Below are positions 2,101 to 25,232 of a stretch of DNA of 32,000 nucleotides, piece after piece. The translations under genes and the position numbers were made by a program. The DNA is from Kineococcus radiotolerans SRS30216 = ATCC BAA-149. GTDB lineage: Bacteria; Actinomycetota; Actinomycetes; Actinomycetales; Kineococcaceae. The stretch's first letter is position 1. Each line of letters starts with the position of its first letter. The notes under the pieces are model-generated. The model was not told the origin of the DNA. It ran no database searches and saw only the letters and a list, made by a program, of their open reading frames with translations. Location of the stretch: assembly GCF_000017305.1 (NCBI RefSeq), contig NC_009664.2:4470001-4502000 (forward strand), given 5' to 3'.

Positions 2101-2120
2101 GGCGCACCACGCGGTGCGCC
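2101..2120 (+). terminator. GC hairpin between the GH78 and GH43 genes (weak terminator or stabilising stem-loop)
   Basis: GGCGCACC-acgc-GGTGCGCC: perfect 8-bp stem, 4-nt loop, followed by TTCGTCG. It lies 27 nt after the GH78 stop. Confidence 0.3.
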
Positions 2121-2172
2121 TTCGTCGCCCTCCACCCGCGTCACGTCCCCCGACCCAGGAGCCGCCGACACC

Positions 2173-6981: not shown

Positions 6982-7145
6982 AAAAGTCCTTTCATCGGCC
7001 GAGGCACTCAGCACGTGGTGATTCAGGGGCGGGTGGGCGTGACGGGTGGGAGTGACGGCTGGGTGGGGTAGGAGAGGACGGCAAGGGGGGACGCGTCGTG
7101 CATGGGTTCTTGGCGCGAGTGACCCTGTCGCGAGAGCTTCCGTGC

Positions 7146-9395: not shown

Positions 9396-9652
9396 ATGGG
9401 CTCCTTCCGGGGTTGGGTGCGCGCATGGGCTCAGTCAGAGCGGATGCGCAGTGGGTGCGAAGGGATGAACAAGCCGGCCCCCGCAGGCTGGCGGGCGGCA
9501 GGACAGCGCCGGGGCCAGCTAGCAGGCGGGCCAGGTTGCGGGCGGGTCAGGTCGCTCGCGGCCCAGCCGGCCGTGATGCAGGTGGACAGGAAGCCGGTGC
9601 ATCGCAGTAGCAGGCCGATACCGATCCCGCCATCACAGCAACCGCGATGTCC

Positions 9653-10627
9653 TCAAGACGTAGGGGCAGGAGTGGTGTCCCCGGCTACCACCCGCAGCCG
9701 GTCGGTCACCTGGTGGGCGGGGTCAGCCACATCCTGCACGTTGAGCCGCTGCAAGAGCAGCCCAGCGATGGCATGCCCACTGAAGGCGATGTCGTAGTCC
9801 ACGGTCGTGATCGAAGGAGTCGAAGCCCGCGCGATGGAAGAGTTGTCGACCCCGATCAGACCGAAATCCTCCGGGGTGCGCCGACCCTGGTGCAGAGCCG
9901 CCCCCAACACCGCCAGCGCGACCTCGTCGTTGTACGCCACCAGCCCGACCGGACGCGGCGGCAGCTTGGCCACCGCAGCCTGGGCCCCACCACGCTCCAA
10001 CGCCACCCGCAGAGTCGGCAGCACGCGTACACCCTGCTCGCTGCACCACGCCTTCGCCCCCCGCTCCCGCGGCAGGGCGAAGCCGCGCTCGCGGACGGCG
10101 ACGGGCACGACGACCGCCAGGGTGTCGTAGCCGGCATCAGTCAGGTAGCGCGCCTGCAGTCTCCCGATCTCCTCGTCGATGGCGACCTGCGCCTCGCGCG
10201 GCTGGGCGATGAGGTGGACGCCGTGCTCGCGGATGCGACGTTCCTGGGCGGGGGGCAGCGGAGCCAGACTCACCACCCCGAACGGCTTGAGTCCCAGAAG
10301 GGTGTCGTGCAGGGACTCTTCCGAGCCCACGAAGCGCAGCAGGTTCGTCAGTCCCGCGGCGGTGAGGTCGGCGGTGATGATGTCGACCAGCTCCCGCAGC
10401 CTCGGGTTGAAGGTGACGTCGGGGATGAGGGTGATGACGATGTCGCTGGTGCCCCGGGCCAGGGTCCGCCCCGCCAGTGAGGGGCGGTAGCCCAGGACGG
10501 CCGCCGAGGCCCGGACCCGCGCGATGGTCTCCTCGCTGAAGAGGTGCTCGCGGCCGTTCAGGATCTGGCTCACCGTGGAGCGGGACAGACCGGCGTGCTG
10601 CGCGACGTCAGCGCTAGTCGCCATCAC
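9653..10627 (-). CDS. LacI/GalR-family transcriptional regulator
   Basis: N-terminal HTH MATSADVAQHAGLSRSTVSQILNG followed by a periplasmic-binding-protein-like sugar-sensor fold. Strong RBS GGGAGAGGAGG upstream of the ATG. Confidence 0.9.
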   Translation of the reverse strand: MMATSADVAQHAGLSRSTVSQILNGREHLFSEETIARVRASAAVLGYRPSLAGRTLARGTSDIVITLIPDVTFNPRLRELVDIITADLTAAGLTNLLRFVGSEESLHDTLLGLKPFGVVSLAPLPPAQERRIREHGVHLIAQPREAQVAIDEEIGRLQARYLTDAGYDTLAVVVPVAVRERGFALPRERGAKAWCSEQGVRVLPTLRVALERGGAQAAVAKLPPRPVGLVAYNDEVALAVLGAALHQGRRTPEDFGLIGVDNSSIARASTPSITTVDYDIAFSGHAIAGLLLQRLNVQDVADPAHQVTDRLRVVAGDTTPAPTS

Positions 10628-10666
10628 TGCCTCCTCTCCCTGACCGCCGCATCGCGTCCACCACGA

Positions 10667-12022
10667 TCAACGGACGCTGCGGATGCGCGCGGTCGTGATC
10701 GCCGTACCGGCGGCGAGTATAGCCCCGCAGGTGAACAGGGCGGCGTAGTTGCCGCCCCCGCCGAGGCCGATGACCAGCGGAGCCACGATCGGGGCGATGA
10801 CGCCGGGGATGCCGGAGGACAGGTAGTAGATGCCCATGTACTTCCCCGCCTTGTCCGGCTCGGGAAGCAGGTCGGTGGCCATGGCCAGGTCCACCGAGGT
10901 GAAAGCACCGGTGCCGGCGCTCAGCAGCGTTCCTCCGAGGATGAACATCGTGATGCTGTCGGCCACCGCAACGGTGATCAGCCCCGTGGCGATGAGGGCG
11001 GCAGCGAGGTAGATGAAGGGCTTGCGCCGGCGCAGCCGGTCGGAAAGGAACCCGCCCAGCACGGCGAAGGACATCAAGGCCACCAGGCTGATGCCGCCGG
11101 CGGCGGCCAGTTTCCGCCCCGCCTCCTCGGGGGTGGAGCCCAGCCGGTCGAGCAGGAAGTACAGCTGATAGGTGCTGAAGAAGGTGAACCCGAACTGCAG
11201 TAGGAATTTACCGATGAAGACCAGTGCGAAGTCGGAGTGCTGACGCGGGTTGAACAAGAAGCTGCGGAAGACCTCCGCCAGGGAGGGGACCACGGTCCCC
11301 GCGGGTGCGGGTTCGTCCTTGAGAATGGGCAGGAAGATCAGCAATCCCAGGGCGAAGACCACGCAAGGGGTGAGAAAGAGCAGCAGCATGCTGCCGGTGA
11401 GGAAGCTGCCGAAGAGGCTGGCGCCTACACCGGCCAGTGCAGCCGAAACCCCGCCGAGGGCTCCGACCCGGCCCCGCTGAGCAGAGGGGACGCGCTCGGC
11501 CAGCACCGGGTTGAACCCGGCGCTGATCACCGCGACGGCCAGCTGGGAGATGGACCAGCCCACCACCATGAGCGCGATGCTGGAGACGAGGGCGATGATG
11601 AGTGCGCCGAGGGCGGCGAGCAGAAGGCCGGCAACCAACCAGGGGCGGCGCCGTCCCCAGCGCAGCCGGGTTCCGTCGGCGAGAACCCCGGCGACGGGTC
11701 CGGCGATCAGACCGAGGATGCTGCCCAGGCCGATGACCAGTCCCAGGCTGGTGTGCTTGCCGGTCGGGTCGATGACCTGGACCTTGTAGGCCAGGCTGAA
11801 CAGCGCCGGCATCAGCATGACCAGGTTCAGGCCGAAGTAGGTGAACATGTAGGCGCCGATGAAGCCGGCGCCCACGCGGGGCAGCGGCCGTACGGGATCA
11901 CCTCGCTGGGAGCTGGGTGGGCCCGGCTCGTTGCGATGGGCGACGTGCTCGGTCACCAAGCCGGCGGCGTCGCTTATCGCCTGGGCAGGGGTGATCTCCG
12001 GGGGCAGTGGGGTGTTGGACAC
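10667..12022 (-). CDS. MFS transporter, glycoside-pentoside-hexuronide (GPH/MelB-like) type
   Basis: About 12 hydrophobic segments. It has the GPH-like loop motif LADGTRLRWGRRRPW. GTG start is preceded by GGAG (5-nt spacer). It is the first gene of the minus-strand MFS-LacI-GH3-GH3 string. Confidence 0.85.
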   Translation of the reverse strand: MSNTPLPPEITPAQAISDAAGLVTEHVAHRNEPGPPSSQRGDPVRPLPRVGAGFIGAYMFTYFGLNLVMLMPALFSLAYKVQVIDPTGKHTSLGLVIGLGSILGLIAGPVAGVLADGTRLRWGRRRPWLVAGLLLAALGALIIALVSSIALMVVGWSISQLAVAVISAGFNPVLAERVPSAQRGRVGALGGVSAALAGVGASLFGSFLTGSMLLLFLTPCVVFALGLLIFLPILKDEPAPAGTVVPSLAEVFRSFLFNPRQHSDFALVFIGKFLLQFGFTFFSTYQLYFLLDRLGSTPEEAGRKLAAAGGISLVALMSFAVLGGFLSDRLRRRKPFIYLAAALIATGLITVAVADSITMFILGGTLLSAGTGAFTSVDLAMATDLLPEPDKAGKYMGIYYLSSGIPGVIAPIVAPLVIGLGGGGNYAALFTCGAILAAGTAITTARIRSVR

Positions 12023-12102
12023 GGTGGCTCCGTCGGCATCCGAGTACAGGGGCAGGTCTCATCCCGGCTCCGGAGCCGGCGCAAGAACGGTAACGCTATC
12101 CG

Positions 12103-12116
12103 TTGACGCGCGTCAA
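12103..12116. promoter_or_regulatory. perfect 14-bp palindrome TTGACGCGCGTCAA in the divergent promoter gap (candidate LacI-family operator)
   Basis: The sequence is exactly self-complementary with a central CG. It lies 81 nt upstream of the MFS GTG (12022) and 67 nt upstream of the GH2 ATG (12183). Each half-site reads as a -35-like TTGACG on its own strand. A flanking inverted repeat AACGG-N9-CCGTT sits at 12086-12104. Confidence 0.55.
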
Positions 12117-12182
12117 TGAGGTGTGTTTCGCTGTGCGGACTGCAGTGGACCCGCGAGCGATGACGCCACCGGAAGGACGACG

Positions 12183-14831
12183 ATGACCGTGGTAGCCCCT
12201 CCGACCCGGGTGCAAGAGCTCAAGGTCTGGAGGTTCGCCCCCGTCGACTCGGAGGCGTGGACTCCTGTCCGGTTGCCCCACGACGCGATGATCACCGAGC
12301 CGCGCACCCCCGATGCTCCCGGCGGCCCCGACGTGGCGTACTTCCCCGGTGGTCGCTACCGCTACCGCACCACCTGGTCCGCCCAGCAGGACCCCGCCGC
12401 CTTTACGGCCCTGCGCTTCGAAGGCGTCCAGGGTGAGGCCGACGTCTCGGTCAACGGGGCACACGTCGGTCGTATCCGCAGCGGCTACAGCGAGGTCGAG
12501 CTCGACATCAGCAACCACGTGTGCTGGGGCGCAGACAACGCGATCCACGTCGACGTCGACAACCTGGCGCAGCCGACCAGCCGCTGGTACCCCGGCTCAG
12601 GGCTCTACCGAACGGTCGCACTGGTCCTGCGACCCACCGTGCACTTCACCGCCGACGGACTGCGCCTTCGAACCCGTCACCTGCAGCGCGAGCGGGCCGT
12701 CGTCGACGTCGCCTACGAGCTGCGCACCGCGGTGGTGGGCCCGCTGCACGCCGAGGGGCATGCCGAGGGGCACGGTGAGGGGCACGGTGAGGGGCACGGT
12801 GAGGGGCACGGTGAGGAGCACCGCGAGGATCGTGTCGAGGAGCACCGCAATGATCGTGTCGAGGAGCAGCTCGAGGTGAGCATCGAACTGCTCGACGGCC
12901 AGGTCGTCGTGGCCCACGGCCTCGGGCGCGATGGAAGTGGGCAGGTGCGGTTGTCGGTCCCCGACCCTCGACCGTGGTCGGCGGAAACCCCCCACCTCTA
13001 CCGGCTGCGGGCCAGGGTGACACGCGGGGGGCGAGTACTGGACGAACGCGTCGAGCGCGTGGGGCTGCGCACCATCAGCATCGACCCCGTCCGCGGGCTG
13101 CAGGTCAACGGGCAGACGGTCCTGCTGCGCGGGGCGTGCGTGCACCACGACAACGGGGTGCTGGGAGCGGCCACCCACCGCGGCGCCGAGTATCGGCGGG
13201 TGCGGTTGCTGAAGGACGCCGGCTTCAACGCGATCCGCAGCGCCCACAACCCCGCCTCGCGGCACCTGCTGCAGGCCTGCGACGAGCTGGGCGTCTACGT
13301 CGTGGACGAGCTCGCCGACTACTGGGTGGTCTCCAAGACGGCCCACGACTTCGCGTGGCGCTTCGAGCAGACCTGGCGCGAGGACGCGGATGCGATGGTG
13401 CGCAAGGACCGCAACCACCCCGCCGTCATCATGTACGCCGCCGGCAACGAGATCCCCGAGACCGCCAAGGTTGAAGGTGTGGACCTGACCCGCCAGATCA
13501 CCGAGCACCTGCACCGCGCCGACCCCGACCGCCCGGTGACCGTGGCGATCAACCTCTTCCTCAACACCATGGTCGCGATGGCCAAGTCCCCCTACGGCGA
13601 CAGTCCCGCCACCTCTCCCGAACACCGCTCTGCGCAGGAGCAAGACCGCCCGTCAATGGCTGGTAGCACCGAGGCCAATGTCATGATCAACCAGATCGGG
13701 CGGATGATGGACGTCGTCTCCCGGCTGCCCCGCGCGGACAAGGCCTCCCGCGATGCCTTCGCCCAGGTCGACGTCGCCGGCTACAACTACGGACTGGGCC
13801 GCTACCAGCACGACGTCAAGGCCTACCCCGGGCGCGTGATCCTCGGGACTGAGACCCTGCCCGGTGACGTCGCCCGGGCCTGGCACCTGGTACAGCAACA
13901 CGATGCGGTCATCGGCGACTTCGTCTGGGCCGGGTGGGAGTACCTCGGCGAGGCGGGGGTCGCGGTCTGGGTCCCGGGTACGCGGGCGGGGCTGTCCAAG
14001 CCGTACCCGCACCTGATCGCCGGACCCGGCATGTTCGACCTGACCGGCCGCCCCGACATCACCTTGCGCCTGGCCCAGGCCGCCTGGGGACGACTGGAGG
14101 CCCCGGCCATCGGGGTGCGACCGCTGGATCGCGCCGGGGTCCCGATGGTCCGCTCCGCCTGGCGGGTCACCGACGCGGTGGAGAGCTGGTCCTGGCGCGG
14201 CTGCGAAGGCCGCACCGCCGAAGTCGAGGTCTACAGCGACGACGACCGCGTCGAACTGCTCCTGAACGGGGAGGTGGTCGGACGCGCCCGCACGGGGCGC
14301 AGGCGCGGGTACCGGGCCACCTTCACCCTCCCCTACGCACCCGGTGTCCTCACCGCTGTGGGCTACCGCGATGGCGTGGCGACCTCGAGCCGGTCCTTGA
14401 GCAGCGCCACCGGCCCGCTGCAGTTGCGTCTGCACAGCGAGGCCGCCGCAATCACCGCCGACGACGAGGAAGTGCTGTTCGTGCAGGTGTCGATCACCGA
14501 CGCCGACGGGGTGGTGGAGATGCTCGCCGACGAGCAGGTCCAGGTGGTCATCGACGGCCCCGGTGAGCTCATCGGGTTCGGCACCGCCGCCCCGGCCTCG
14601 GAGGAGGGTTTCACCGGCGACACCCGCACCACCTTCCGGGGGCGGGCCCTGCTGGTGGTGCGCAGCACCGGCGCCGAAGGAGCGATCACCGTGCGGGTGC
14701 AGGGGGCGACCACGGGGCGGGCCGAGGTGGTCGTCCCCGCTCTCAACCCGCCCGGCCGGACGGATGTCCGCGCCACCGATCTGGTCTCCATTCCCCGGGC
14801 CACCGGCGAGGCCGTCGTCGTCCTCGACTGA
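12183..14831 (+). CDS. GH2 family glycoside hydrolase (beta-galactosidase / beta-glucuronidase-like)
   Basis: ATG at 12183 is preceded by GGAAGGA (6-nt spacer). The track start at 12123 is less likely. Motifs: WRFAPVD..W..VRLPHD, PWSAETPHLY, NAIRSAHNPASRHLLQACDELGVYVVDE, NHPAVIMYAAGNE (acid/base Glu). C-terminal Ig-like domains follow. No signal peptide. Confidence 0.87.
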   Translation: MTVVAPPTRVQELKVWRFAPVDSEAWTPVRLPHDAMITEPRTPDAPGGPDVAYFPGGRYRYRTTWSAQQDPAAFTALRFEGVQGEADVSVNGAHVGRIRSGYSEVELDISNHVCWGADNAIHVDVDNLAQPTSRWYPGSGLYRTVALVLRPTVHFTADGLRLRTRHLQRERAVVDVAYELRTAVVGPLHAEGHAEGHGEGHGEGHGEGHGEEHREDRVEEHRNDRVEEQLEVSIELLDGQVVVAHGLGRDGSGQVRLSVPDPRPWSAETPHLYRLRARVTRGGRVLDERVERVGLRTISIDPVRGLQVNGQTVLLRGACVHHDNGVLGAATHRGAEYRRVRLLKDAGFNAIRSAHNPASRHLLQACDELGVYVVDELADYWVVSKTAHDFAWRFEQTWREDADAMVRKDRNHPAVIMYAAGNEIPETAKVEGVDLTRQITEHLHRADPDRPVTVAINLFLNTMVAMAKSPYGDSPATSPEHRSAQEQDRPSMAGSTEANVMINQIGRMMDVVSRLPRADKASRDAFAQVDVAGYNYGLGRYQHDVKAYPGRVILGTETLPGDVARAWHLVQQHDAVIGDFVWAGWEYLGEAGVAVWVPGTRAGLSKPYPHLIAGPGMFDLTGRPDITLRLAQAAWGRLEAPAIGVRPLDRAGVPMVRSAWRVTDAVESWSWRGCEGRTAEVEVYSDDDRVELLLNGEVVGRARTGRRRGYRATFTLPYAPGVLTAVGYRDGVATSSRSLSSATGPLQLRLHSEAAAITADDEEVLFVQVSITDADGVVEMLADEQVQVVIDGPGELIGFGTAAPASEEGFTGDTRTTFRGRALLVVRSTGAEGAITVRVQGATTGRAEVVVPALNPPGRTDVRATDLVSIPRATGEAVVVLD
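12747..12866. repeat. in-frame tandem repeats inside the GH2 CDS: 12-bp unit x6, then 24-bp unit x2
   Basis: 12747-12818 encodes HAEG-HAEG-HGEG-HGEG-HGEG-HGEE (GGGCACGGTGAG-type units). 12819-12866 encodes HREDRVEE-HRNDRVEE. Confidence 0.9.
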
Positions 14832-14869
14832 CTCCTCGAGTCCGACCATCAGCTGACCACCGAGAGGAC

Positions 14870-16042
14870 ATGCTCGTGCCGTACACCTTCCCCGTCGGCT
14901 TCTTGTGGGGGGCGGCGACAGCCGCTCATCAGGTCGAGGGCAACAACGTCAACAACGACTGGTGGAAGCTTGAGCACGACGCAGCCGGCTACATCGACTT
15001 CAGTGGGGATGCGCTCGACAGCTATCACCGCTACCCCGAGGACATGCGGTTGCTGGCAGAAGCGGGTTTGAACACCTACCGCTTCAGCATCGAATGGTCG
15101 CGCATCGAACCTAGTCCGGGAAAGTTCTCCGGAGCGTTGCTGGCCCACTACCGCCGCATGATCGACACCGCTCTCGCACTGGGACTGACTCCGATCGTCA
15201 CCCTGCATCACTTCACCCACCCGCTGTGGTTCGGCGAGCGCGGGGGATGGCTGGGGCCTGACGCCGTGGAGACGTTCACCCGCTACGTGCAGCGCGCTTG
15301 CACCATCCTCGAGGGGGTGCAGTGGGTGTGCACCATCAACGAACCCAACGTCGTGGCCATGAACCACGGCGCAGCACGCATCATGGCCGCCGGCCATCCC
15401 TATCCGTCGACGCCCTTCCCCGATCCTGTGATCGGGGAAGCGCTGATCACCGCCCACCTGGCCGCAGCGCCGCTGATCCGGCAGGCCACCGGCGCCCACG
15501 TGGGCTGGACGGTAGCCAACCAGGCCTTCGTCGCGGCCCCGGGGGCGGAGAGCAAGCACGCCGAGGTGAAGTACACCTGGGAGGACATGTACCTCGAGGC
15601 TGCGCGCGGTGACGACTACGTGGGCGTGCAGTCCTACACCAGCCAGGTCATCGACGCCGACGGCATCCGCGCCCATCCGGAAGACCCCGGGAACACCCTC
15701 ATGGGGTGGGCTTACCGACCCGACGCCCTGTCCATCGCTCTGCGTCACACCCGTGACATTGTCGGTGAGGTGCCGATCGTGGTCACCGAGAACGGCATCG
15801 CCACCGATGACGACGAACGGCGCATCGCCTACACCGGCGAGGCCCTGGCTGGACTAGCCCAGGCGATGCAGGACGGTATCGATGTGCGTGGCTACTGCCA
15901 TTGGAGTCTGCTGGACAACTTCGAGTGGGGCCGCTGGCACCCGACATTCGGGCTGATCGCGGTCGATCACGACACCTTCGCGCGTCATCCCAAGCCGAGC
16001 CTGGCGTGGCTGGGGTCCGTCGCTCAAGCCAACGCCATCTGA
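14870..16042 (+). CDS. GH1 beta-glucosidase
   Basis: Motifs: FPVGFLWGAATAAHQVEG, YRFSIEWSRIEP, TINEPNV (acid/base Glu), VVTENGIATDDD (nucleophile Glu), WSLLDNFEW. The RBS GAGAGGA ends 1 nt before the ATG, so GTG at 14876 (7-nt spacer) is an alternative start. Confidence 0.92.
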   Translation: MLVPYTFPVGFLWGAATAAHQVEGNNVNNDWWKLEHDAAGYIDFSGDALDSYHRYPEDMRLLAEAGLNTYRFSIEWSRIEPSPGKFSGALLAHYRRMIDTALALGLTPIVTLHHFTHPLWFGERGGWLGPDAVETFTRYVQRACTILEGVQWVCTINEPNVVAMNHGAARIMAAGHPYPSTPFPDPVIGEALITAHLAAAPLIRQATGAHVGWTVANQAFVAAPGAESKHAEVKYTWEDMYLEAARGDDYVGVQSYTSQVIDADGIRAHPEDPGNTLMGWAYRPDALSIALRHTRDIVGEVPIVVTENGIATDDDERRIAYTGEALAGLAQAMQDGIDVRGYCHWSLLDNFEWGRWHPTFGLIAVDHDTFARHPKPSLAWLGSVAQANAI

Positions 16043-16067
16043 GACCGCCCGTACGAGGAGACCGAGC

Positions 16068-16898
16068 ATGCAGATCGAGAACGCCGTGTTCGCCGTCACC
16101 GGAGCCGGGAACGGCATGGGGCGACAGGTGGTGTTGGAACTGGTCCGCCGCGGGGCGCGAGTCGCCGCCTTCGACCGGGACGAGACCGGACTCGCAGAGA
16201 CCGCCGGCTTGGCCGGTGCCGGCGATCGGGTCAGTACCCATGTAGTGAACGTCACCGACCCCGGCGCAGTCGCGGCCATGCCTGCGGTTGTCGAGGCAGT
16301 GCACGGTCACGTTGATGCGGTGATCAACATCGCCGGGATCATCCATCGCTTCACTTCCTTCGAGGACCTCACCGCTGAAGAGACCCAACGCGTCTTGGAG
16401 GTGAACCTCATCGGTACGATCGCTGTGAGCCGCGCCTTCCTGCCTGTCCTGCAGCAGCGGCCGCGCGCAGCACTGGTCAACATGGCCAGTCTCGCGGCGT
16501 TGGTGCCCTTCGCCGGTCAGACGCTCTACGGGGCCAGCAAGGCGGCCGTGAAGCAGTTCAGCGAAGGCATCTACGCGGAACTTCGCGGCTCGACGGTGAC
16601 GGTCTCGACTATCTTCCCGGGCAACATCGCCACCAACCTGACCGGGAACTCCGGCGTGGCCATGATCGACGCCGGAGGCCGGAAGGTGCGGTCCACATCA
16701 CCTGAGGATGCGGGGCGCCAGATCGTCCAAGGCATCGCCAACGGCCGGTTCCGGATCCTCATTGGCCGCGACGCCCGCCTGCTCAGCCTGCTCGAGCGAC
16801 TAGCTCCGCGTTGGACCACCGACATGGTTGCCCGACAGATGGCCTCGGTCCTGTCGCCGCCGGCAGGATCACGAACCCCGCAACGGGTCGCTTCGTGA
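16068..16898 (+). CDS. classical short-chain dehydrogenase/reductase (SDR)
   Basis: Motifs: TGAGNGMGRQ (TGxxxGxG), NIAG, and the catalytic S...YGASK. RBS GAGGAG lies 7 nt upstream. The gene starts 25 nt after the GH1 stop. Confidence 0.9.
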   Translation: MQIENAVFAVTGAGNGMGRQVVLELVRRGARVAAFDRDETGLAETAGLAGAGDRVSTHVVNVTDPGAVAAMPAVVEAVHGHVDAVINIAGIIHRFTSFEDLTAEETQRVLEVNLIGTIAVSRAFLPVLQQRPRAALVNMASLAALVPFAGQTLYGASKAAVKQFSEGIYAELRGSTVTVSTIFPGNIATNLTGNSGVAMIDAGGRKVRSTSPEDAGRQIVQGIANGRFRILIGRDARLLSLLERLAPRWTTDMVARQMASVLSPPAGSRTPQRVAS

Positions 16899-17013
16899 CA
16901 ACTTCCACGGCGACCGCTGACGACCTCGCGAGCCGTGAGGCGGCGCGCCGCCCGCTCGACGGGCGAGCGCGACCTCACCGCCACGCCCGCACAAGCACCG
17001 AATCGAGGACTCG

Positions 17014-18231
17014 ATGACCACCACCGACGCCACCTGCCCGGTACGCGAGCTACCCCGCGACCGGTGCCCCTTCGACCCCGATCCCGCTTACGTGCGGTTG
17101 CGTGTGGAGGAGCCGGTCACCCGGGTCAACACGCCGGCTGGCCTTGACGTCTGGCTGGTCAGTCGTTACGAGGACGCCCGGACGGTGCTGTTGGACGGGG
17201 AGTCATTCAGCAACATCGACTCCAGCTCCTCCCACCTCATTGGGCAGGTCGAGCAGCTGCAGCAACCACCCCCGCCGGGGATCCTGCTGCGCCTGGACGG
17301 GGAAGCCCACAGCTCACTGCGCTTGCGCCTTGCACGGGAGTTCTCGCCGAAGGCGATGGCGCGCCTGGAGCCGTACGTGCAGGCCCTGGTGGAGGAGCAC
17401 CTGCAGCGTCTGATTGCCGCCGGTACACCCTTCGACCTGTATCGCGACTTCGCCCTGACGATTCCCTCCCTCGTGATCGGGGAACTGCTTGGGGTCCCCG
17501 TCCAGGATCGTGACGTCTTCGCCTCCACCACCTCGCGAATGGTCGACATCAGCCTCACCGCGCAGGAACGTGAAGCGGCGTCGCAGGAAATGAACGGCTT
17601 CCTGGTCCAGCTGGTGCAGGCGAAATTCGCCGACCCGGCCGACGACCTACTGAGCCGCCTCATCACCGACCCCCGCAAGCACCCGGTCACCTTCGAAGAG
17701 CTCGTCGGGCTGTCCTTGCTGCTGCTGACCGCCGGGCACGACACCACCGCCAACATGATCGCGTTGGGCACCCTGCGGCTGCTGCAGGAGCCGGCCTTGG
17801 CCGAACGCGTGCGCGACGACTGTGAGGTGCTCCAGACCGGGATCGATGAACTGGTGCGTTACCTCACGATCGTGCACTACGGCGTGCTGCGGCTAGCGGT
17901 ACGCGATGTCCAAGTGGGCGATGTGATGGTGCCGGCGGGTGACTACGTGGCCGTCAGCCTGGAGTCGGCCAACCGGGACGAGGCCCTCACTCTCGACCCG
18001 GACCGTCTCGACCTCGAGCGCACCTCCGCCCACGTCGGCTTCGGCTACGGCGTGCACCAGTGCCTGGGCCAGCACCTGGCCCGCCTGGAGCTGCGGCTGG
18101 CACTACCTGCCCTGCTGCGGCAGCTGCCGGGGTTGCGGACGGTCGAGGCGTTGCCGGACATCCCCTTCAAGAACGACATGATCGTTTACGGGGTCAAGAA
18201 GCTTAACGTGACCTGGGACGGAGCCCGCTGA
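17014..18231 (+). CDS. cytochrome P450 monooxygenase
   Basis: Motifs: I-helix LLLTAGHDTT, ExxR (ELVRY), and the heme-thiolate loop FGYGVHQCLGQHLA. RBS GAGGA upstream of the ATG. Confidence 0.93.
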   Translation: MTTTDATCPVRELPRDRCPFDPDPAYVRLRVEEPVTRVNTPAGLDVWLVSRYEDARTVLLDGESFSNIDSSSSHLIGQVEQLQQPPPPGILLRLDGEAHSSLRLRLAREFSPKAMARLEPYVQALVEEHLQRLIAAGTPFDLYRDFALTIPSLVIGELLGVPVQDRDVFASTTSRMVDISLTAQEREAASQEMNGFLVQLVQAKFADPADDLLSRLITDPRKHPVTFEELVGLSLLLLTAGHDTTANMIALGTLRLLQEPALAERVRDDCEVLQTGIDELVRYLTIVHYGVLRLAVRDVQVGDVMVPAGDYVAVSLESANRDEALTLDPDRLDLERTSAHVGFGYGVHQCLGQHLARLELRLALPALLRQLPGLRTVEALPDIPFKNDMIVYGVKKLNVTWDGAR

Positions 18232-18431
18232 TGCGCGTCACCACCGAAACCGACCGGTGCGTGGCCGCCGGAGTGTGCGTCGTGGCCGCCCCCGCCGTTT
18301 TCGATCAGGACGACGAGGAAGGCCTCGTCGTCGTCCTGGATGCCGACCCGGGGGAGGAGCAGCGCCGGGCGGTGGAAGACGCCGCGGCGCGTTGCCCGGC
18401 CCGCGTCATCCACGTCAGCGGCGCCTCGTGA
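18231..18431 (+). CDS. small ferredoxin (3Fe-4S-type, P450-associated)
   Basis: 66 aa. It has DRCVAAGVCVVAAP ... ARCPARVI (CxxxxxC...CP pattern). Its ATG overlaps the P450 stop by 1 nt (TGATG), which suggests translational coupling. Confidence 0.8.
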   Translation: MRVTTETDRCVAAGVCVVAAPAVFDQDDEEGLVVVLDADPGEEQRRAVEDAAARCPARVIHVSGAS

Positions 18432-18504
18432 CGACTTATCAGATCAGTGACGCGAGGCGGTGCCCGACGGCGTTGACGGGCCCCATGACGCGGCAGGATG
18501 GGTT

Positions 18505-19755
18505 GTGTCTGTGACCTCACCCGGCCAGGACGGAGTCGTCATCGTGGGGGCGGGTGCCGCGGGGCTGGCCACGGTCGAGGGACTACGTGCCCACGGCTAC
18601 AACGGAGCAGTGCGCCTGATCGGCGACGAGGCGCACCTGCCCTACGACCGCCCACCCCTGTCGAAGGACCTGCTGACGGGTCCTCCAGAGCTGTCGCAGC
18701 TGCACCTCAGCACCCCGCAGCGGCTCAGCCAGCTTCAGGTGCAGGTGCTGCGCGGCGCTGCGGCTGAGCGCCTGTCGATACCTCAGCGCACGGTCCACCT
18801 GGACGATGGTCGCGCCCTGACCTACGAGCACCTGGTGTTGGCCACCGGGGTGCGGCCGCGCCCGGTGCCCGGCATCACGGCTCTGCGTGGGGTGCACCAC
18901 CTGCGCACCGTCGACGAGGCCGGCGCCCTGCACGCTGACCTGCAGGCCGGTCGACGTCTCGTGGTGCTCGGCGGAGGCCTGGTGGGTGCGGAGGTGGCTG
19001 CCGTGGCCGCGATCCTGGGGTTGTCGGTGACGGTGCTCTGCCGCGCACAGCACCTGCTGGCCGGCGCCGGTGTGGGAGCGGATCTTGACGCTCACCTGCT
19101 CGACCTGCACCAGCAGCACGGGGTGCACGTGCGCACCGGCCCCGACGCGCAGGCGATAGGCCTGACCGAGGAGCACGGCCGGGTCACTGGAGTACGTACC
19201 GCCGACGGCACAGTCACACCGGCTGATGTTCTGCTCGTTGCCGGCGGCTCGGCCCCTGCGGTGGGATGGCTGGCCGGTAGTGGCCTGGACGTGAGTGATG
19301 GTGTGCTCAGCGATGTCTGCTTACGTGCCGGTGAGGATGTGTACGCCGTGGGCGACGTGTGCCGCTGGCCGCACCCGCGCACCGGCCAGCTCGAGCGGGT
19401 GGAGCACCGCAGCAACGCCACGGAACAAGGCCTGCACGTGGGGCAGCAGATCGCCACCGGCGTCGCCTGCCCCTTCGACGCTGTCCCGTACTTCTGGAGC
19501 CGACAGTTCGGCATGACCCTGCACGCCTACGGGTGGCTGCGTCGCCACGACCACGTACGCCTCGCCGAGGGGTCCTTCGCCGAGGGTAAGTTCGTCCTCA
19601 CCTACCACCACGGCGATCAGTTGGTCGGGGTGGTAGGAGCGCGCAGCGCACGATCCCTCCGCGACTTGAGGAAAGTCCTCGAGACAACCGGCGACCTCAG
19701 CGCGACCGCATCCGTTCCAGGACGCAGCGACGAGCTCGACGTGAGCAGACGGTGA
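18505..19755 (+). CDS. FAD-dependent ferredoxin reductase (pyridine nucleotide-disulfide oxidoreductase family)
   Basis: Motifs: VVIVGAGAAGLATVEGL (FAD GxGxxG), PYDRPPLSK, LVVLGGGLVGAEVA (NAD GxGxxG), VYAVGDV. I chose GTG at 18505 because AGGA lies 7 nt upstream. GTG at 18460 (track) or 18511 are alternatives. Confidence 0.85.
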   Translation: MSVTSPGQDGVVIVGAGAAGLATVEGLRAHGYNGAVRLIGDEAHLPYDRPPLSKDLLTGPPELSQLHLSTPQRLSQLQVQVLRGAAAERLSIPQRTVHLDDGRALTYEHLVLATGVRPRPVPGITALRGVHHLRTVDEAGALHADLQAGRRLVVLGGGLVGAEVAAVAAILGLSVTVLCRAQHLLAGAGVGADLDAHLLDLHQQHGVHVRTGPDAQAIGLTEEHGRVTGVRTADGTVTPADVLLVAGGSAPAVGWLAGSGLDVSDGVLSDVCLRAGEDVYAVGDVCRWPHPRTGQLERVEHRSNATEQGLHVGQQIATGVACPFDAVPYFWSRQFGMTLHAYGWLRRHDHVRLAEGSFAEGKFVLTYHHGDQLVGVVGARSARSLRDLRKVLETTGDLSATASVPGRSDELDVSRR

Positions 19756-19833
19756 AGGAACCGCCCGGAACGGTGGTCGATCATCAGCGGAATCAGCTTC
19801 AGGTGATCCCACCCCGGCCGCAGACAAGTGCTG

Positions 19834-19864
19834 GAGGTGGCCTCTCGTTCTAGGGGGCCACCTC
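19834..19864 (+). terminator. terminator-like hairpin after the GH2-to-FdR operon
   Basis: GAGGTGGCC (19834-19842) and GGCCACCTC (19856-19864) form a perfect 9-bp stem with a 13-nt loop, followed by GGTGCTTTTCTCG. It lies 79 nt after the reductase stop. Confidence 0.45.
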
Positions 19865-20125
19865 GGTGCTTTTCTCGTGCCCCTCTCGGTGCCCGCCGTG
19901 GTCTCGGCGATGAGCGATCAAGCCCCCGCAACGACCTGCTTCTCGTCCAGGAAATGCTGCCCTCCACCTCCCCGGAAACCACCGACCCGCCGCTAACCAC
20001 CGTCGTTCCCGCAGCGGCCGGACCGATCAGCAGACTCGCTGTGCCAGTGCTCAGGCGGGACGCCCTCCATGACGGCTTCCTCAAGACCACCACCCCGGGC
20101 GGTGCGGGAAAGGGCGCATTTCCTT

Positions 20126-20149
20126 CCAACGCCAACGCCAACGCCAACG
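20126..20149. repeat. hexamer tandem repeat (CCAACG)x4 in an intergenic region
   Basis: Four perfect copies, 97 nt upstream of the GH35-like ATG. Confidence 0.9.
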
Positions 20150-20245
20150 CGGGCTGAGCGCCGACAACGTCACAACTCGAACCCTCCTACCACCACCCGC
20201 CCAGGAACGGGAGGGTGGTTCAGTCCAACCCCCGGAGTCGTCACC

Positions 20246-21850
20246 ATGACCACACACAGCACCTCCGCCTCCTCGCGGTGGTCCGGCCCCTATCTTGCCG
20301 TAGACGGCAGACCCTTCCTCGTCGTCGGGGCGGAGGTTCACAATTCCAGCTCGAGCACCCCCAGCGCCATCGCCGACTCCTTCGCAGCCGTGCGGGCACT
20401 GGGTGCCAACACCGTCTTGGCGCCGGTGGCCTGGGACCTCTTCGAGCCGGTCGAGGGCCACTTCGACCACACACTGGTCGACGCGATGATCAAGCAGGCG
20501 CAGCAACTGGGGATGCGCCTGATCCCACTGTGGTTCGGCGCCTACAAGAACGCTGTTTCCACCTACGCTCCCGGGTGGGTCAAGACCGACAGTGAGCGCT
20601 TCCCACGTACCCAGGTCGCCGACGGTCAACGCATCGAGCAACTGACGCCCTTCGCCCCGGCCGCGCGCGCCGCTGATGCCCGCGCCTTTGGCGCTTTGAT
20701 GCGGCGGATCCACGACGTGGACACCGCCGGGACGGTTCTGGCCGTGCAGGTGGAGAACGAGATGGGCCTGTTGGGCGACTCCCGTGACCGCAGCCCGCTG
20801 GCCAACGCCGCTTTCATCGCCGACGTGCCGCCCGGCGTGATCGAGGCGGTGGCGACCGACACGAACATGCCCCTGCACCAGGTGTGGGTCGACGCGGGCT
20901 CACGCGCGGAAGGGGCATGGTCGGAGGTCTTCGGCTCTGGTGAGCGCGTGGACGAAGCCTTCATGGCCGCCGCCTACGCTGCTTACACCGAGGAGGTGGC
21001 CAGCGCCGGCGCCTCTGAGCACGATGTACCGCTCTTCGTCAACGCCTGGCTGGACCACGACAGCGTCCTCGATGGTCCCGTGGCCGTGGCCGGAGGCAAG
21101 CGCCCGGGACAGTATCCCAGCGGTGGGCCGGTCATGCCGGTCGCGGCTATCTGGGAGGCAATGGCACCGACCGTCGATTTCCTGGCACCGGACATGTACA
21201 TCGAGGACGCAGAACCGGTCATGGCCGCCTACCGTGCTCGCCGCGGACGGTTGCTCATCCCTGAACTACGCGCAGATGCCCGCGGCCTTGCGCAGATGTT
21301 CAGTGCGATCGGGACCCACCAAGCCCTTGGTGTCTCACCTTTCGGGGTCGACGTCCTACGGTCCGACGAACCCGTCGGCGCCGCGCTCAGCGACGCCTAC
21401 CAGCTGTTGCGAGCCGCTGCCGTACTCATCCGGCAGCACGCGATAGCGCCCGTGGTGGGTTTCGAGCTGAACGCCGCGCAGCCATCGTTGAGCATCGACC
21501 TGGGAGGAAGCGTGCTGCAGGTCGACACGCACAGCGAGTGGGGCCCCGCCCCCGAGTACCCCGGCTACGGGCTGGCCTTCGAGGCCGACGGCGGTGTCTA
21601 CGTCATCGGACGCGGGTTCTGGATCACGCTGCGAGGTGAGACCGGGCAGGAGGTCTCGTTCCTGCAGGCGGACCAGTACCGGCTGCAGGGCGAGCAGCTG
21701 GTGCTCAGTCACCGGTTGAACGGGGACGAGACCAGTGGGGGGACCCTCGTGCCGTTCCCCTTCGCCGGTGCCCCGTTGCTGCCGGGGCGGGTCATCCCCA
21801 CCCGAATCCCTGACAGCGGCATCACCCACATCAGGACCTACTCGTACTGA
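20246..21850 (+). CDS. clan GH-A beta-galactosidase-like hydrolase (GH35-like N-terminal TIM barrel with DUF5597-like C-terminal domain)
   Basis: ATG at 20246 is preceded by GGAG (8-nt spacer). The track extension from 20069 is Pro/Thr/Arg-rich and unlikely to be coding. Motifs: GANTVLAPVAWDLFEPVEGHFD, LIPLWFGAYKN, AVQVENEMG (acid/base Glu). The family assignment is from memory of similar proteins. Confidence 0.7.
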   Translation: MTTHSTSASSRWSGPYLAVDGRPFLVVGAEVHNSSSSTPSAIADSFAAVRALGANTVLAPVAWDLFEPVEGHFDHTLVDAMIKQAQQLGMRLIPLWFGAYKNAVSTYAPGWVKTDSERFPRTQVADGQRIEQLTPFAPAARAADARAFGALMRRIHDVDTAGTVLAVQVENEMGLLGDSRDRSPLANAAFIADVPPGVIEAVATDTNMPLHQVWVDAGSRAEGAWSEVFGSGERVDEAFMAAAYAAYTEEVASAGASEHDVPLFVNAWLDHDSVLDGPVAVAGGKRPGQYPSGGPVMPVAAIWEAMAPTVDFLAPDMYIEDAEPVMAAYRARRGRLLIPELRADARGLAQMFSAIGTHQALGVSPFGVDVLRSDEPVGAALSDAYQLLRAAAVLIRQHAIAPVVGFELNAAQPSLSIDLGGSVLQVDTHSEWGPAPEYPGYGLAFEADGGVYVIGRGFWITLRGETGQEVSFLQADQYRLQGEQLVLSHRLNGDETSGGTLVPFPFAGAPLLPGRVIPTRIPDSGITHIRTYSY

Positions 21851-21877
21851 GACACCGCCCGGAGCGGTAGCACTGCC

Positions 21878-21960
21878 GGGCGGGCACCGGGCGGGCACCG
21901 GGCGGGCACCGGGCGGGCACCGGGCGGGCACCGGGCGGGCACCGGGCGGGCACCGGGCAC
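21878..21960. repeat. 11-bp tandem array (GGGCGGGCACC x7 plus a partial copy)
   Basis: Seven perfect 11-bp units at 21878-21954 and the partial GGGCAC at 21955-21960. The array is intergenic, 28 nt after the GH35-like stop and 44 nt before the kinase ATG. Confidence 0.95.
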
Positions 21961-22003
21961 ACTAGTCCTGGACGCGGAACCGGTCGAAGGCAAGGGGGAG
22001 CGT

Positions 22004-23179
22004 ATGGCGCGCGGGTACCTGATCGCCTTCGCCGCGGTCCTGCTGCTCGCCGGCCTCCTCGATGCCGCCACCGCGTCCAGCCCGCTCGTCCTGGCCTCCT
22101 TCGCGGTCGCCGCGGTGGCGGCCACCGCCTCGAGCCGTGCACGAGCGGTGACGTCGTGGGCCGCAGCGGGGAGCTCTCTCGGCCTGACCGTCGCCACTGT
22201 CCTGGACCCGGGCTCGACCGGCACCTCCGTCCCCGTCGGAACGGCTGAGGCATTGGCGCTGACCCTGCTCGTGCTCACCACGACCCGCCGCGCTGAGCGG
22301 TGGCGCGGGTGGTCGCTGACCACGGCGACCGCGCTCGCGGTGGTGTGCCTGCCCGTGCGCCTCGGGTGGAGCCCCGACTCGCCGACGTTGGTGGCAGGGA
22401 CGGTCGTGCTGAGCGCAGTGGCCGTCGCCGTCGGCTCGGCCCTGCGCGGAGCCGACGCCGCGCGGCGCGCGGCGGTGACGGCGGTCCGACGCCGCGAACG
22501 CGAGGAGGTCGCTCGCGAACTGCACGACGTCGTGGCCCACCACGTCACCGGCATGGTCGTCGCCACCCAGGCAGCCCGGCTGGTCGCCACGCGCAGCGAC
22601 GCCCGGCTGGACCCCACCCTGGCCGCCATCGAAGGCGCCGGAGCCGAGGCGCTGGCCGCCATGCGTCGCCTCGTCGAGGTGCTGCGCACCGATCCCGACG
22701 ATCGCCTCGCGCAGGACGGCGCCGACGGTGACGGGACCGGGGAGCGCACCCCGGTACCTCAGGCGGAGGACCTGGTGGACCTGGTGCGTCGTTTCCGAGG
22801 AGTCACCACCGGCCGGGTGGAGCTGCTGGGGGACCCCCGCGAGCTGGCCGACCTGCCGGTCGACGGGCAGGTCGCGCTGTACCGGGCCACCCAGGAGGCA
22901 CTGACCAACACCGCCCGCCACGCACCCGCCGCCGACCTGGTGCAGGTCGAAGTCGTCCGCCACGGCGGGACCGTGTCCGTGGAGATCACCGACTCCGGTG
23001 CCGCTGGTGCGCGTCGGCGGGAACCGGCAGGGCCGGCAGGAGGGGGCTTCGGGTTGATCGGCATGCGCGAACGCCTTGACGCCCTGGGCGGCTCCCTCAA
23101 CGCCGGACCACACGGGAAGGGCTGGCGAGTCTCGGCCACCTTGCCCCACCCCACAGCCGGTGCGGAGGGACAGCGATGA
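22004..23179 (+). CDS. two-component sensor histidine kinase (HisKA_3 / NarX-DesK-LiaS class)
   Basis: RBS AAGGGGGAG. Multi-TM N-terminus. H-box ARELHDVVAHHV, N-box EALTNTARHA, G-box GGFGLIGMRERLDALGG. Confidence 0.9.
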   Translation: MARGYLIAFAAVLLLAGLLDAATASSPLVLASFAVAAVAATASSRARAVTSWAAAGSSLGLTVATVLDPGSTGTSVPVGTAEALALTLLVLTTTRRAERWRGWSLTTATALAVVCLPVRLGWSPDSPTLVAGTVVLSAVAVAVGSALRGADAARRAAVTAVRRREREEVARELHDVVAHHVTGMVVATQAARLVATRSDARLDPTLAAIEGAGAEALAAMRRLVEVLRTDPDDRLAQDGADGDGTGERTPVPQAEDLVDLVRRFRGVTTGRVELLGDPRELADLPVDGQVALYRATQEALTNTARHAPAADLVQVEVVRHGGTVSVEITDSGAAGARRREPAGPAGGGFGLIGMRERLDALGGSLNAGPHGKGWRVSATLPHPTAGAEGQR

Positions 23180-23853
23180 CCACGCGGGTGCTCATCGCCG
23201 ACGACCAGGAGATGGTGCGCGCGGGGTTCGCACTGATCCTGGCCGCCCAGCCCGGTATAGACGTCGTCGCCCAGTGCGCGGACGGGGTCGAGGCGCTGGA
23301 AGCCGCCCGACGTCTGCGGCCCGACGTCGCCCTGCTGGACGTCCGGATGCCGCGCCTGAACGGGCTGGAGGTCACCCGCCGGCTAGCCGGCCCCGGGGTG
23401 CTGGACCCGGTCAGAGTCGTCGTGGTGACCACGTTCGACCTCGACGAGTACGTGCACGCCGCGCTACGCGCAGGAGCGTGCGGGTTCCTGCTCAAGGACG
23501 CCGGCCCGACCCTGCTGGTCGAGGCCGTGCGGGCCGCCGCAGCCGGGGAATCACTCATCAGCCCCGCGATCACCGTCCGTTTGCTCCAGCGCTTCGCCGC
23601 CGCGGCCCCCGCTCCAGACAGCCGGGCGGGGGAGATGCTCAGCGAGCGCGAGCTGGACGTCGTGCGACTCGTCGCGCGAGGGGGGACCAACGCCGAGGTA
23701 GGCGCCGAGCTGTTCATCTCCCTCGGCACGGTCAAGGCGCACCTGAGCAGCGTGCAGACCAAGCTCTCGGCCCGGAACCGGGTGGAGGTCGCCGCCTGGG
23801 CCTGGGAGAACGGGGTGGTGGGTCCTACCGGCGGCACCGACGGCCCGGCCTGA
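23176..23853 (+). CDS. NarL/LuxR-family response regulator
   Basis: Receiver domain (VLIADDQ ... ALLDVRMP). C-terminal LuxR HTH LSERELDVVRLVARGGTNAEVGAELFISLGTVKAHLSSVQTKL. ATGA overlap with the kinase stop. Confidence 0.93.
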   Translation: MTTRVLIADDQEMVRAGFALILAAQPGIDVVAQCADGVEALEAARRLRPDVALLDVRMPRLNGLEVTRRLAGPGVLDPVRVVVVTTFDLDEYVHAALRAGACGFLLKDAGPTLLVEAVRAAAAGESLISPAITVRLLQRFAAAAPAPDSRAGEMLSERELDVVRLVARGGTNAEVGAELFISLGTVKAHLSSVQTKLSARNRVEVAAWAWENGVVGPTGGTDGPA

Positions 23854-24971: not shown

Positions 24972-24980
24972 GTCCGTCCG

Positions 24981-25232
24981 GTGCGGTGGATCGTTCGCGC
25001 GATGAGACCTGGTCCCATCGCGCGGACTCAGAGACGGGACTCGAGCGTCCGGTGCTGGAGGCTGCCGCTGGGGCTGGTGGCGGAGGAGCTGGACTCCGCT
25101 CCGGCGGTGGGTGCGGTCTACCGCCGCCTCGAGGCGGAGGGAATGCTCGCGGCGGAGTGGTTCGGCGACGACCTGCTGCCCCTTGCGGTCGAGCTCACCC
25201 CCGCGGGGCGGATGCTGTTGCGCTCGCGCTGA
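24981..25232 (+). CDS. possible small winged-helix protein (PadR-like C-terminal half), perhaps degraded
   Basis: GAVYRRLEAEGMLAAEW...ELTPAGRMLL resembles the PadR recognition-helix/wing region. The first ~25 codons have poor third-position GC, and an N-terminal-like LERPVLEA string appears in another frame. No clear RBS. Confidence 0.3.
   Translation: MRWIVRAMRPGPIARTQRRDSSVRCWRLPLGLVAEELDSAPAVGAVYRRLEAEGMLAAEWFGDDLLPLAVELTPAGRMLLRSR

Follow-up and report, generated by a model that had tools for sequence, protein, structure and literature searches.

A conserved glycosidase and cytochrome P450 locus in Kineococcus radiotolerans that may deglycosylate plant steroids and oxidise their aglycones

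Here, we describe a gene locus within a 32,000-nucleotide stretch of DNA from the actinobacterium Kineococcus radiotolerans SRS30216 (NC_009664.2, positions 4,470,001 to 4,502,000; ~70% G+C), called the window below, in which genes for several glycoside hydrolase (GH) families lie together with those for a short-chain dehydrogenase/reductase (SDR) and a cytochrome P450 with its redox partners. Our comparisons suggest that the locus probably strips 3-O-glycosylated plant steroids of their sugars and then oxidises the aglycone, all under LacI control, with steroidal glycoalkaloids (alpha-solanine, alpha-chaconine, alpha-tomatine) or spirostanol saponins as likely substrates. This view builds on gene content, motif integrity, synteny and operator conservation, which are direct observations. 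That sugar stripping and aglycone oxidation may be joined in one locus was proposed in a preliminary description of its six central genes, and our data support the idea at the three points where it could have failed: no operator, shared motif or promoter-like site was detected in the 115-nt gap between SDR and P450, glycosidases recur beside orthologous P450 genes (10 of 13 loci, the window counted, as opposed to 0 of 75 paralogous ones), and the P450 is related to CYP105, a promiscuous family that includes a sapogenin hydroxylase, rather than to a family with a fixed, unrelated substrate. By the same comparisons, the window seems to hold the K. radiotolerans version of a gene set common to several actinobacterial genera.

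At the core of the locus, six co-directional genes on the forward strand (12183-19755; ORF listing and Pfam) code for a GH2 glycosidase, a GH1 glycosidase, the SDR, the P450, a ferredoxin and a ferredoxin reductase. They are spaced by 38, 25 and 115 nt, by a 1-nt overlap (TGATG) between P450 and ferredoxin and by 73 nt ahead of the reductase, and each is preceded by a purine-rich ribosome-binding site. On the forward strand downstream of GH2, the sole terminator-like site is a hairpin at 19834-19864 (12-pair stem, 8 GC pairs) that runs into a T-rich tail (GGTGCTTTTC) and likely marks the end of the transcription unit; the other forward-strand match (12101-12118) is the operator palindrome dealt with below. 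Open reading frames, Pfam matches and direct reading of the sequence thus bear out what the preliminary description had said about the six gene identities, the gaps, the lone downstream hairpin and a complete class I P450 set, whose P450, ferredoxin and FAD reductase are all present with intact motifs. With its genes on one strand, short gaps, one upstream regulatory site and one downstream terminator, the run has the makings of a single operon and we infer that it is co-transcribed.

The first gene of this putative operon (GH2, 12183-14831) codes for a beta-galactosidase-like enzyme with five GH2 Pfam domains, NCBIfam matches of the GalA/GalB type that stay under cut-off and 63-64% identity to counterparts in Clavibacter and Microbacterium. 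Its reading frame opens with a GTG at 12123; an alternative ATG at 12183 is preceded by the ribosome-binding site GGAAGGA and is likely the true start, because conserved regulatory sequence (12103-12133) overlaps the GTG. GH1 (14870-16042, forward strand) is a short beta-glycosidase of 390 aa that matches the Pfam GH1 profile in two stretches and lacks ~100 profile positions (226-327), while both catalytic glutamates are kept and the motifs INEP and VTENG are intact. Since this short form recurs at 69-75% identity in Microbacterium, Clavibacter and the metagenomic locus L088, it may represent a distinct GH1 subgroup tied to the gene set. The SDR (16068-16898, forward strand) is of the classical type (Pfam adh_short, E=9e-42; motifs TGAGNGMG and YGASK intact) and is followed by the CYP105-like P450 (17014-18231, forward strand; Pfam). 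The 66-aa ferredoxin (18231-18431, forward strand; Pfam Fer4_13, Fer4_15), whose start overlaps the P450 stop codon, has three Cys residues (positions 10, 16, 55) as in [3Fe-4S] types, and the FAD-dependent reductase (18505-19755, forward strand; Pfam Pyr_redox_2, Reductase_C) carries an intact GAGAAG motif and an in-frame alternative GTG at 18460.

The functional locus is larger than the six genes covered by the preliminary description. Upstream and on the forward strand lie genes for a GH78 alpha-L-rhamnosidase (35-2074; Pfam Bac_rhamnosid6H, E=1e-121), whose 5' end is cut by the window edge such that only the last third of its N-terminal domain falls inside, and for a GH43 glycosidase of the xylosidase or arabinosidase type (2071-3933; Pfam Glyco_hydro_43, E=1.5e-82), a family that is also annotated in the Clavibacter tomA region and in L089. 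These are followed on the reverse strand by two GH3 glycosidases (GH3a, 4174-7014, with Pfam GH3 N-terminal, C-terminal and Fn3-like domains; GH3b, 7146-9395, Pfam GH3), by a LacI-family repressor that we presume to regulate the locus (9653-10627; Pfam LacI, Peripla_BP_3) and by an MFS transporter (10667-12022; Pfam MFS_1, MFS_2), the presumed glycoside importer, which diverges from GH2 and has 67-68% identical counterparts in L086 and L088. GH3a is 63% identical to a Rathayibacter GH3 that adjoins an orthologue of the SDR. GH3b has its best NCBIfam match, under cut-off, in an arabinopyranosidase family and homologues (53-64% identity) in 8 of the 12 orthologous loci compared; its family is widespread in Actinobacteria at ~60% identity, so that identity alone is no proof of specific orthology. 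Downstream of the hairpin, a separate forward-strand unit codes for a beta-galactosidase-like GH35-family/DUF5597 glycosidase (20069-21850; Pfam DUF5597; NCBIfam GH35_fam, 470 bits against a cut-off of 500). By eye, no obvious signal peptide was seen at the N-termini of the window glycosidases.

Regulation of the locus seems to centre on a perfect 14-bp palindrome, TTGACGCGCGTCAA, at 12103-12116 in the divergent MFS/GH2 promoter, which we predict from its conservation to be the operator of the conserved LacI repressor. Copies that are exact or carry one mismatch are found in four other genomes: upstream of GH78 in Microbacterium (L004 3225), near LacI and the P450 in Paenarthrobacter, at four sites between genes in L088 (3149, 3203, 15778, 17848) and five times in the Clavibacter tomA region (coordinates include L081 9933, 15357 and 16569 and L092 36184 and 36215), where they occupy the MMPL/P450, LacI/GH2 and GH43/MFS-GH78 intervals and the region upstream of the GH3a homologue. 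The match is exact before the P450 unit, the GH2 operon, a GH3 gene and the MFS-GH78 unit in Clavibacter, and before glycosidase units in Microbacterium and L088. At a tolerance of one mismatch, 1.48 Mb of paralogue control loci hold no copy. The 3' flank of the palindrome is also partly conserved across genera, roughly as TCAAtgaNNtgtgtTTcNctg (12103-12133 in the window), and does not fit a standard -35/-10 promoter. In Clavibacter the lone P450 unit carries its own copy of the operator found before glycosidase units; as an identical operator precedes both, the two kinds of unit would form one predicted regulon. In the window and L088, where the P450 lies 3' of the glycosidases on the same strand, the operator stands, as regards the operon, only at the GH2 promoter, which matches what a read-through operon predicts.

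In most relatives, the P450-ferredoxin-reductase trio stands alone with an upstream region of its own, often on the strand opposite to the glycosidases, and the 115-nt SDR/P450 gap of the window holds a GC-rich hairpin (16939-16982, forward strand; RNA fold of the gap -49.3 kcal/mol) that, as is often the case for actinobacterial terminators, has no T-run. It is therefore possible, albeit doubtful to our minds, that the trio is transcribed apart from a GH2-GH1-SDR sugar unit and that the gap hairpin is a terminator or processing site. The hairpin is just marginally more stable than shuffled sequence (z = -2.0), and the gap contains neither a LacI-type operator nor any motif common to the upstream regions of orthologous P450 genes. 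Nor was a promoter-like site detected there; the sigma-70 consensus scan was empty across all of 9400-22200 and is uninformative for an actinobacterium of 70% GC. L088 shares the co-directional layout without an operator between its modules, and even if two transcription units existed, the functional link would survive, since the shared Clavibacter operator puts both modules in one predicted regulon anyway. A second palindrome, GTACA-N3-TGTAC, occurs with 0-1 mismatch 100-130 nt upstream of the P450 start in three relatives (L001 9880, L003 9900, L084 9870) and also at L004 6489; it is not found in the 115-nt gap of the window. It may be a site for the LuxR-type regulator that accompanies these P450 units, with its significance unproven against a background of 28 matches at no more than one mismatch in 1.48 Mb.

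That glycosidases and P450 belong together is strongly suggested by their recurrence. We compared 80 loci around CYP105-like genes, nine around named members of the P450 orthogroup and one annotated Clavibacter record, which gave 13 distinct orthogroup loci (the window counted) and, as a control, 75 loci with more distant CYP105 paralogues. Homologous GH78, GH3, GH2, GH1 or GH10 genes lie within 10 kb of the P450 in 10 of the 13 orthogroup loci; two others have only a LacI homologue nearby and one only a 3-ketosteroid dehydrogenase, an MMPL gene and a two-component system. Among the 75 paralogous loci, none has the locus glycosidases or the MFS transporter (Fisher p = 6e-11 for glycosidase co-occurrence). 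The association spans six genera with gene order and strand shuffled, which argues for selection on proximity rather than common ancestry of one arrangement, and because the GH3b family is so common, its weight rests on the recurrent combination of genes rather than on any one glycosidase. Much like the window in layout is the metagenomic L088, with LacI and MFS running leftward and GH2-GH3-GH1-(ACT-domain gene)-P450-ferredoxin-reductase rightward. Could a xenobiotic P450 cassette have landed by chance beside an ordinary locus for plant polysaccharides or oligosaccharides? GH2, GH3, GH43, GH35 and GH78 enzymes do occur in hemicellulose and pectin loci as well, and CYP105 cassettes that include a ferredoxin gene downstream are both frequent and mobile (PMC4265290). 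With the combination rearranged in at least ten loci from six genera as opposed to none of 75 paralogue loci, and with an identical operator before both kinds of unit in Clavibacter, we consider chance adjacency extremely unlikely.

Two further observations from the relatives concern the substrate side. In Glycomyces sp. MUSA5-2, a 1692-aa fusion of a GH78 rhamnosidase with a GH3 glucosidase (L084 1074-6152) lies just upstream of the orthologous P450, and shorter GH78-GH3 fusions (968 and 1059 aa) occur among GH3 homologues; in the Rosetta-stone sense, such fusions support the notion that both enzymes work on one substrate. An Abhydrolase_3 esterase recurs in four loci (L087 6216-7100, L084 6149-7018, L003 4905-5750, L085 6335-7213; 53-54% identical among loci) and is replaced by a GDSL lipase in L088 (12635-13249), which hints at acylated (e.g. 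acetylated) glycosides among the substrates; no esterase of this kind was identified in the window.

A telling relative is the tomato pathogen Clavibacter michiganensis. Here, 4.5 kb separate the orthologous P450-ferredoxin-reductase unit from a GH10 gene that the published tomatinase primers Cmm1F/R match exactly with the published 500-bp product (L081/L082 4025-4524), tomA (CMM_0090) being the GH10 tomatinase of Clavibacter michiganensis subsp. michiganensis. Likewise, the published Clavibacter michiganensis-specific 'ferredoxin reductase' primers Cmm141F/R match the reductase of the P450 unit exactly, with a 141-bp product (L081/L082 11901-12041). A 41-kb annotated stretch from strain VQ28 (L092, NZ_CP076350.1) contains counterparts of 12 of the 13 window locus genes at 43-75% identity and at least 88% coverage; the thirteenth, GH43, is present in both and falls under the coverage filter. 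Identity to the window is highest for GH1 (75%), followed by LacI (65%), which in Clavibacter is placed between operator-bearing promoters, the SDR (64%), GH3a (63%, the gene with the upstream operator), GH3b and GH2 (63% each), GH78, P450 and ferredoxin (62% each), the GH35/DUF5597 gene (59%), whose counterpart closes a Clavibacter GH2-GH3-GH1 operon, MFS (54%) and the reductase (43%). We thus view the window locus, on this comparative basis, as a homologue, in compacted form, of the chp/tomA pathogenicity island's tomA subregion. The two share the TTGACGCGCGTCAA operator and differ in arrangement: the Clavibacter P450 trio forms a divergently transcribed unit by itself and has an operator of its own, the SDR belongs to a further unit that includes an ABC transporter, and the region has tomA, an MMPL gene and its own two-component system, whereas the window has neither tomA nor MMPL nor a close relative of that two-component system. 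In the literature searched, only tomA has been studied from this region and the P450 unit figures solely as a diagnostic PCR target. As a side observation, the database entry for the whole chp/tomA island of VQ28, with the P450 unit in it, is a circular 131.6-kb 'plasmid' (pVQ28-1), and according to a Chilean comparative-genomics paper, the island formed a contig of its own in the assembly of strain OP3; in some strains the island may be extrachromosomal or excisable.

As for the P450 itself, which is 100% identical to a K. radiotolerans database protein and has the haem-thiolate motif FGYGVHQCLG, the best PDB match is CYP105A3 (2z36; E=3e-86; 164 of 388 aligned residues, i.e. 42% identity), and CYP105 members make up the top ~15 PDB matches. 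Under the nomenclature rule of at least 40% identity to a named member, it would be a borderline member of CYP105. Protein database searches delimit a discrete orthogroup at 57-72% identity (Kineococcus, Clavibacter michiganensis, Microbacterium, Arthrobacter, Paenarthrobacter, Pseudarthrobacter, Brachybacterium, Glycomyces and metagenomes), below which all other CYP105-like proteins share less than 50%; it would for that reason be at most a new CYP105 subfamily. In every orthologous locus, ferredoxin and then reductase are kept directly after the P450. This resembles the class I systems of CYP105A1/B1 (Streptomyces griseolus), CYP105D1 and CYP105C FcpC (S. virginiae), where a small [3Fe-4S] ferredoxin also lies directly downstream; unlike the described CYP105 systems, the window P450 has a reductase gene of its own, and it lies within a glycosidase locus under a predicted LacI-type operator, a setting seen in none of the 75 other CYP105-like loci examined. 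The CYP105 family is promiscuous, with xenobiotic and tailoring roles (PMC4265290), and its member FcpC, a diosgenone C25-hydroxylase, sets a precedent for the hydroxylation of a 3-keto steroidal sapogenin. A biosynthetic role for the window P450 was rejected, as no polyketide synthase, non-ribosomal peptide synthetase or terpene synthase gene lies nearby.

Within the window itself there is no direct clue to the class of the aglycone; such clues come from sister loci. Beside tomA in Clavibacter, a Microbacterium locus has a TomA-like GH10 that is 62% identical to the Clavibacter enzyme. In Kineococcus SYSU DK002, a 3-ketosteroid delta1-dehydrogenase gene lies beside the P450 (NCBIfam equivalog, 903 bits against a cut-off of 793; PDB 7p18, E=1e-99), with 61% homologues in L006 and L089. 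The SDR points in the same direction. Its orthologues in Pseudarthrobacter and Mycolicibacterium litorale (L086, L090; 64-67% identity) are translationally coupled through overlapping starts to a flavoprotein that, among PDB entries, best matches 3-ketosteroid delta4-(5alpha)-dehydrogenase (E=2e-58), and others (62-67% overall) directly follow GH3 genes in Microbacterium (L004), Rathayibacter (L091) and Clavibacter. In steroidal glycoalkaloids and saponins, the sugar chain is attached at the 3-beta-hydroxyl group. Removal of the last sugar would for this reason create the substrate of a 3-hydroxysteroid dehydrogenase. An extended SDR in L087, L003 and L084 was dropped as steroid evidence, because Pfam Epimerase and 3Beta_HSD match it equally well and its sole PDB match is a sugar-nucleotide dehydratase/epimerase.

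Several points weigh against this reading. For the substrate class, the reactions of SDR and P450, binding by the repressor and co-transcription, the evidence is entirely comparative. Individual glycosidase 'orthologues' appear less specific than the P450, and the stable GC hairpin in the 115-nt gap could attenuate read-through into the P450 trio. Three features of sister loci are missing from the window: a 3-ketosteroid dehydrogenase, an MMPL transporter and TomA/GH10, for which Clavibacter TomA gave no tblastn match and the ORFs scanned gave no GH10 domain. K. radiotolerans is not known as a plant associate, and the SDR, which belongs to a broad, unnamed orthogroup, has generic matches in both PDB and NCBIfam.

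The last point, together with the fact that the SDR always accompanies glycosidases, directly after GH1 or GH3, raises the question whether it oxidises a released sugar, some sugar 1-dehydrogenases being SDRs. It could then act as an L-rhamnose, galactose or xylose 1-dehydrogenase of a non-phosphorylative route, or on a sugar ring of the glycoside, leaving the P450 as the only enzyme to touch the aglycone. We hold this to be decidedly unlikely: no sugar-dehydrogenase equivalog is among the top NCBIfam matches of the SDR, no enzyme of a non-phosphorylative sugar route (lactonase, dehydratase, aldolase) is encoded in the window, and the orthologues in Pseudarthrobacter and Mycolicibacterium are coupled to the delta4-(5alpha)-type flavoprotein, in Mycolicibacterium with no sugar genes adjoining.

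The lack of tomatinase and 3-ketosteroid dehydrogenase in the window also suits a scheme in which the coupling of deglycosylation and oxidation is the same and the substrate is not a steroid. For flavonoid rutinosides and neohesperidosides, the combination of GH78 with GH3 or GH1 is likewise the classic one, and the substrates might then be flavonoid rhamnoglucosides (rutin, naringin, hesperidin), saponins of the triterpenoid type or other terpenoid glycosides. The arabinopyranosidase match of GH3b, under cut-off as it is, would fit too, and CYP105D7 hydroxylates isoflavones (PMC4265290). Genes for flavonoid ring cleavage or isomerases were seen in none of the loci, whereas sister loci hold tomatinase, the equivalog-level delta1-dehydrogenase and delta4-(5alpha)-type flavoproteins beside orthologues of the P450 or SDR, and so a non-steroid substrate strikes us as unlikely. 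Plant steroid glycosides thus remain our preferred substrates, with a qualification as to how far their breakdown goes. Genes of actinobacterial steroid-nucleus catabolism, with its 3-ketosteroid dehydrogenase, 9-alpha-hydroxylase and meta-cleavage steps (KstD, KshAB, Hsa including HsaA-D, Mce including Mce4), are absent from the window, KstD-type genes being confined to the sister loci L083, L006, L089 and L086; the window is not a full steroid catabolic cluster and complete mineralisation is not encoded there.

Both stages of this scheme have literature precedents. In Arthrobacter sp. S41 and Glutamicibacter halophytocola S2, a cluster of RhaA (GH78), GluA (GH3) and GalA (GH2) converts alpha-solanine and alpha-chaconine stepwise to solanidine by removal of rhamnose, glucose and galactose (PMC9597252, PMC12640052). 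The same families are clustered in the window (GH78, both GH3 and GH2), a likeness at the level of enzyme family; the best 120 matches to the Arthrobacter HS15c GH3 included no characterised enzyme from either Glutamicibacter or Arthrobacter S41. The published clusters are described as three glycosidase genes with the aglycone as endpoint and with no mention of a dehydrogenase or P450, and the window exceeds them by GH1, GH43, GH35, the SDR and a full P450 system. For the second stage, Sphingobium sp. RC1 oxidises C3 of tomatidine, solanidine and diosgenin once the sugars are gone, using several GH enzymes, Sp3betaHSD1/2 and a 3-ketosteroid delta4-dehydrogenase (PMC10653915). It shares with the window the two-stage logic of glycosidases followed by a classical SDR on the freed 3-beta-hydroxyl, and differs in being a proteobacterium with partly other glycosidase families, with no P450 mentioned and with dehydrogenase candidates that came from genome-wide BLAST with known steroid-catabolic enzymes (PMC10653915). 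Our search of the glycoalkaloid and sapogenin literature found no P450 or clustered dehydrogenase in such loci and no account of their coupling to glycosidases. The earlier remark that this coupling was not recognised as a described system thus stands for the literature searched and needs to be tempered in two respects: homologous genes are already annotated, though uncharacterised, around tomA, and the sugar-stripping part has been characterised in Arthrobacter and Glutamicibacter.

Taken together, a sequence of events may be envisaged as follows. LacI (9653-10627) would bind TTGACGCGCGTCAA at the divergent promoter, as site conservation suggests, until a glycoside-derived signal lifts repression. 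MFS would then be made leftward and GH2-GH1-SDR-P450-ferredoxin-reductase rightward, as one message that runs up to the 19834 hairpin. Once the transporter has brought the glycoside into the cell, GH78, GH43, both GH3 enzymes, GH2, GH1 and GH35 would successively strip rhamnose, xylose/arabinose, glucose and galactose in an intracellular fashion, and the SDR would turn the freed 3-beta-hydroxyl into a 3-ketone. Finally, the CYP105-like P450, fed with electrons by its own ferredoxin and reductase, would hydroxylate the aglycone, maybe in the E/F-ring region by analogy with the CYP105 diosgenone C25-hydroxylase. As the window has no ring-cleavage genes, detoxification or partial modification of a still-bioactive aglycone seems likelier than full mineralisation. 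Tomatidine is itself antibacterial, and this would make sense both of a further reaction once the sugars are off and of the MMPL and sensor genes that relatives carry.

Downstream of GH35, the window contains genes for a HisKA_3 histidine kinase (22004-23179) and a LuxR-type response regulator (23176-23853), both on the forward strand (Pfam), which may or may not belong to the locus. Most relatives have a kinase/regulator pair of this kind with the P450 unit, and there the regulators are 54-71% and the kinases 32-55% identical among themselves. The window proteins share only ~28-33% (kinase) and 39-45% (regulator) with these pairs, while an unrelated locus scores 48%, and at 33% and 43%, respectively, they are no closer to the Clavibacter pair than unrelated loci are. 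Further 3' of the locus, composition shifts (AT skew -0.40 at 24-25 kb; GC skew sign change at 24-26 kb) and an Mrr-type restriction endonuclease gene is found on the reverse strand (25488-26201); the 24001-26300 interval may be the edge of an acquired region. An ORF at 24035-25348 was rejected as a gene, since it is rich in Arg, Pro and Ala, has no Pfam match and seems to be an artefact of the wrong frame. Searches of the window for Rfam families and tRNA genes gave no matches.

What seems new here, judged by sequence comparison, is that a specific P450 system and SDR are conserved partners of glycosidases with which they share an operator, and that K. radiotolerans has them joined in one apparent operon; already known are the deglycosylating part and the presence of a homologous set, annotated and uncharacterised, in a well-known pathogenicity island. 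For the fate of glycoalkaloid aglycones, the literature searched offers sugar stripping and C3 oxidation in Sphingobium and no enzyme for later steps. Our analysis adds candidates, namely the P450 orthogroup with its redox partners, the SDR orthogroup and a predicted repressor/operator pair that links both to the glycosidases, and these may be of practical interest for the detoxification of potato side-streams past solanidine and as biocatalysts for steroidal sapogenins. The tomA-region link of the P450 unit also explains why 'ferredoxin reductase' serves as a pathogen-specific PCR marker, and it is of possible relevance to tomato canker. Tentatively, and with less confidence than we have in the locus as a whole, the P450-ferredoxin-reductase trio might be seen as a dedicated, horizontally spread module that makes the first oxidative attack on aglycones of the spirosolane, solanidane or spirostane type. 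If so, the trio, which in most relatives is accompanied by an MMPL exporter and a two-component sensor, would be a second line of defence that neutralises an aglycone still toxic after loss of its sugars, and because the Clavibacter pathogenicity island holds this module under the same LacI operator, the trio would also be a determinant of host adaptation, so far unrecognised, in a quarantine tomato pathogen.

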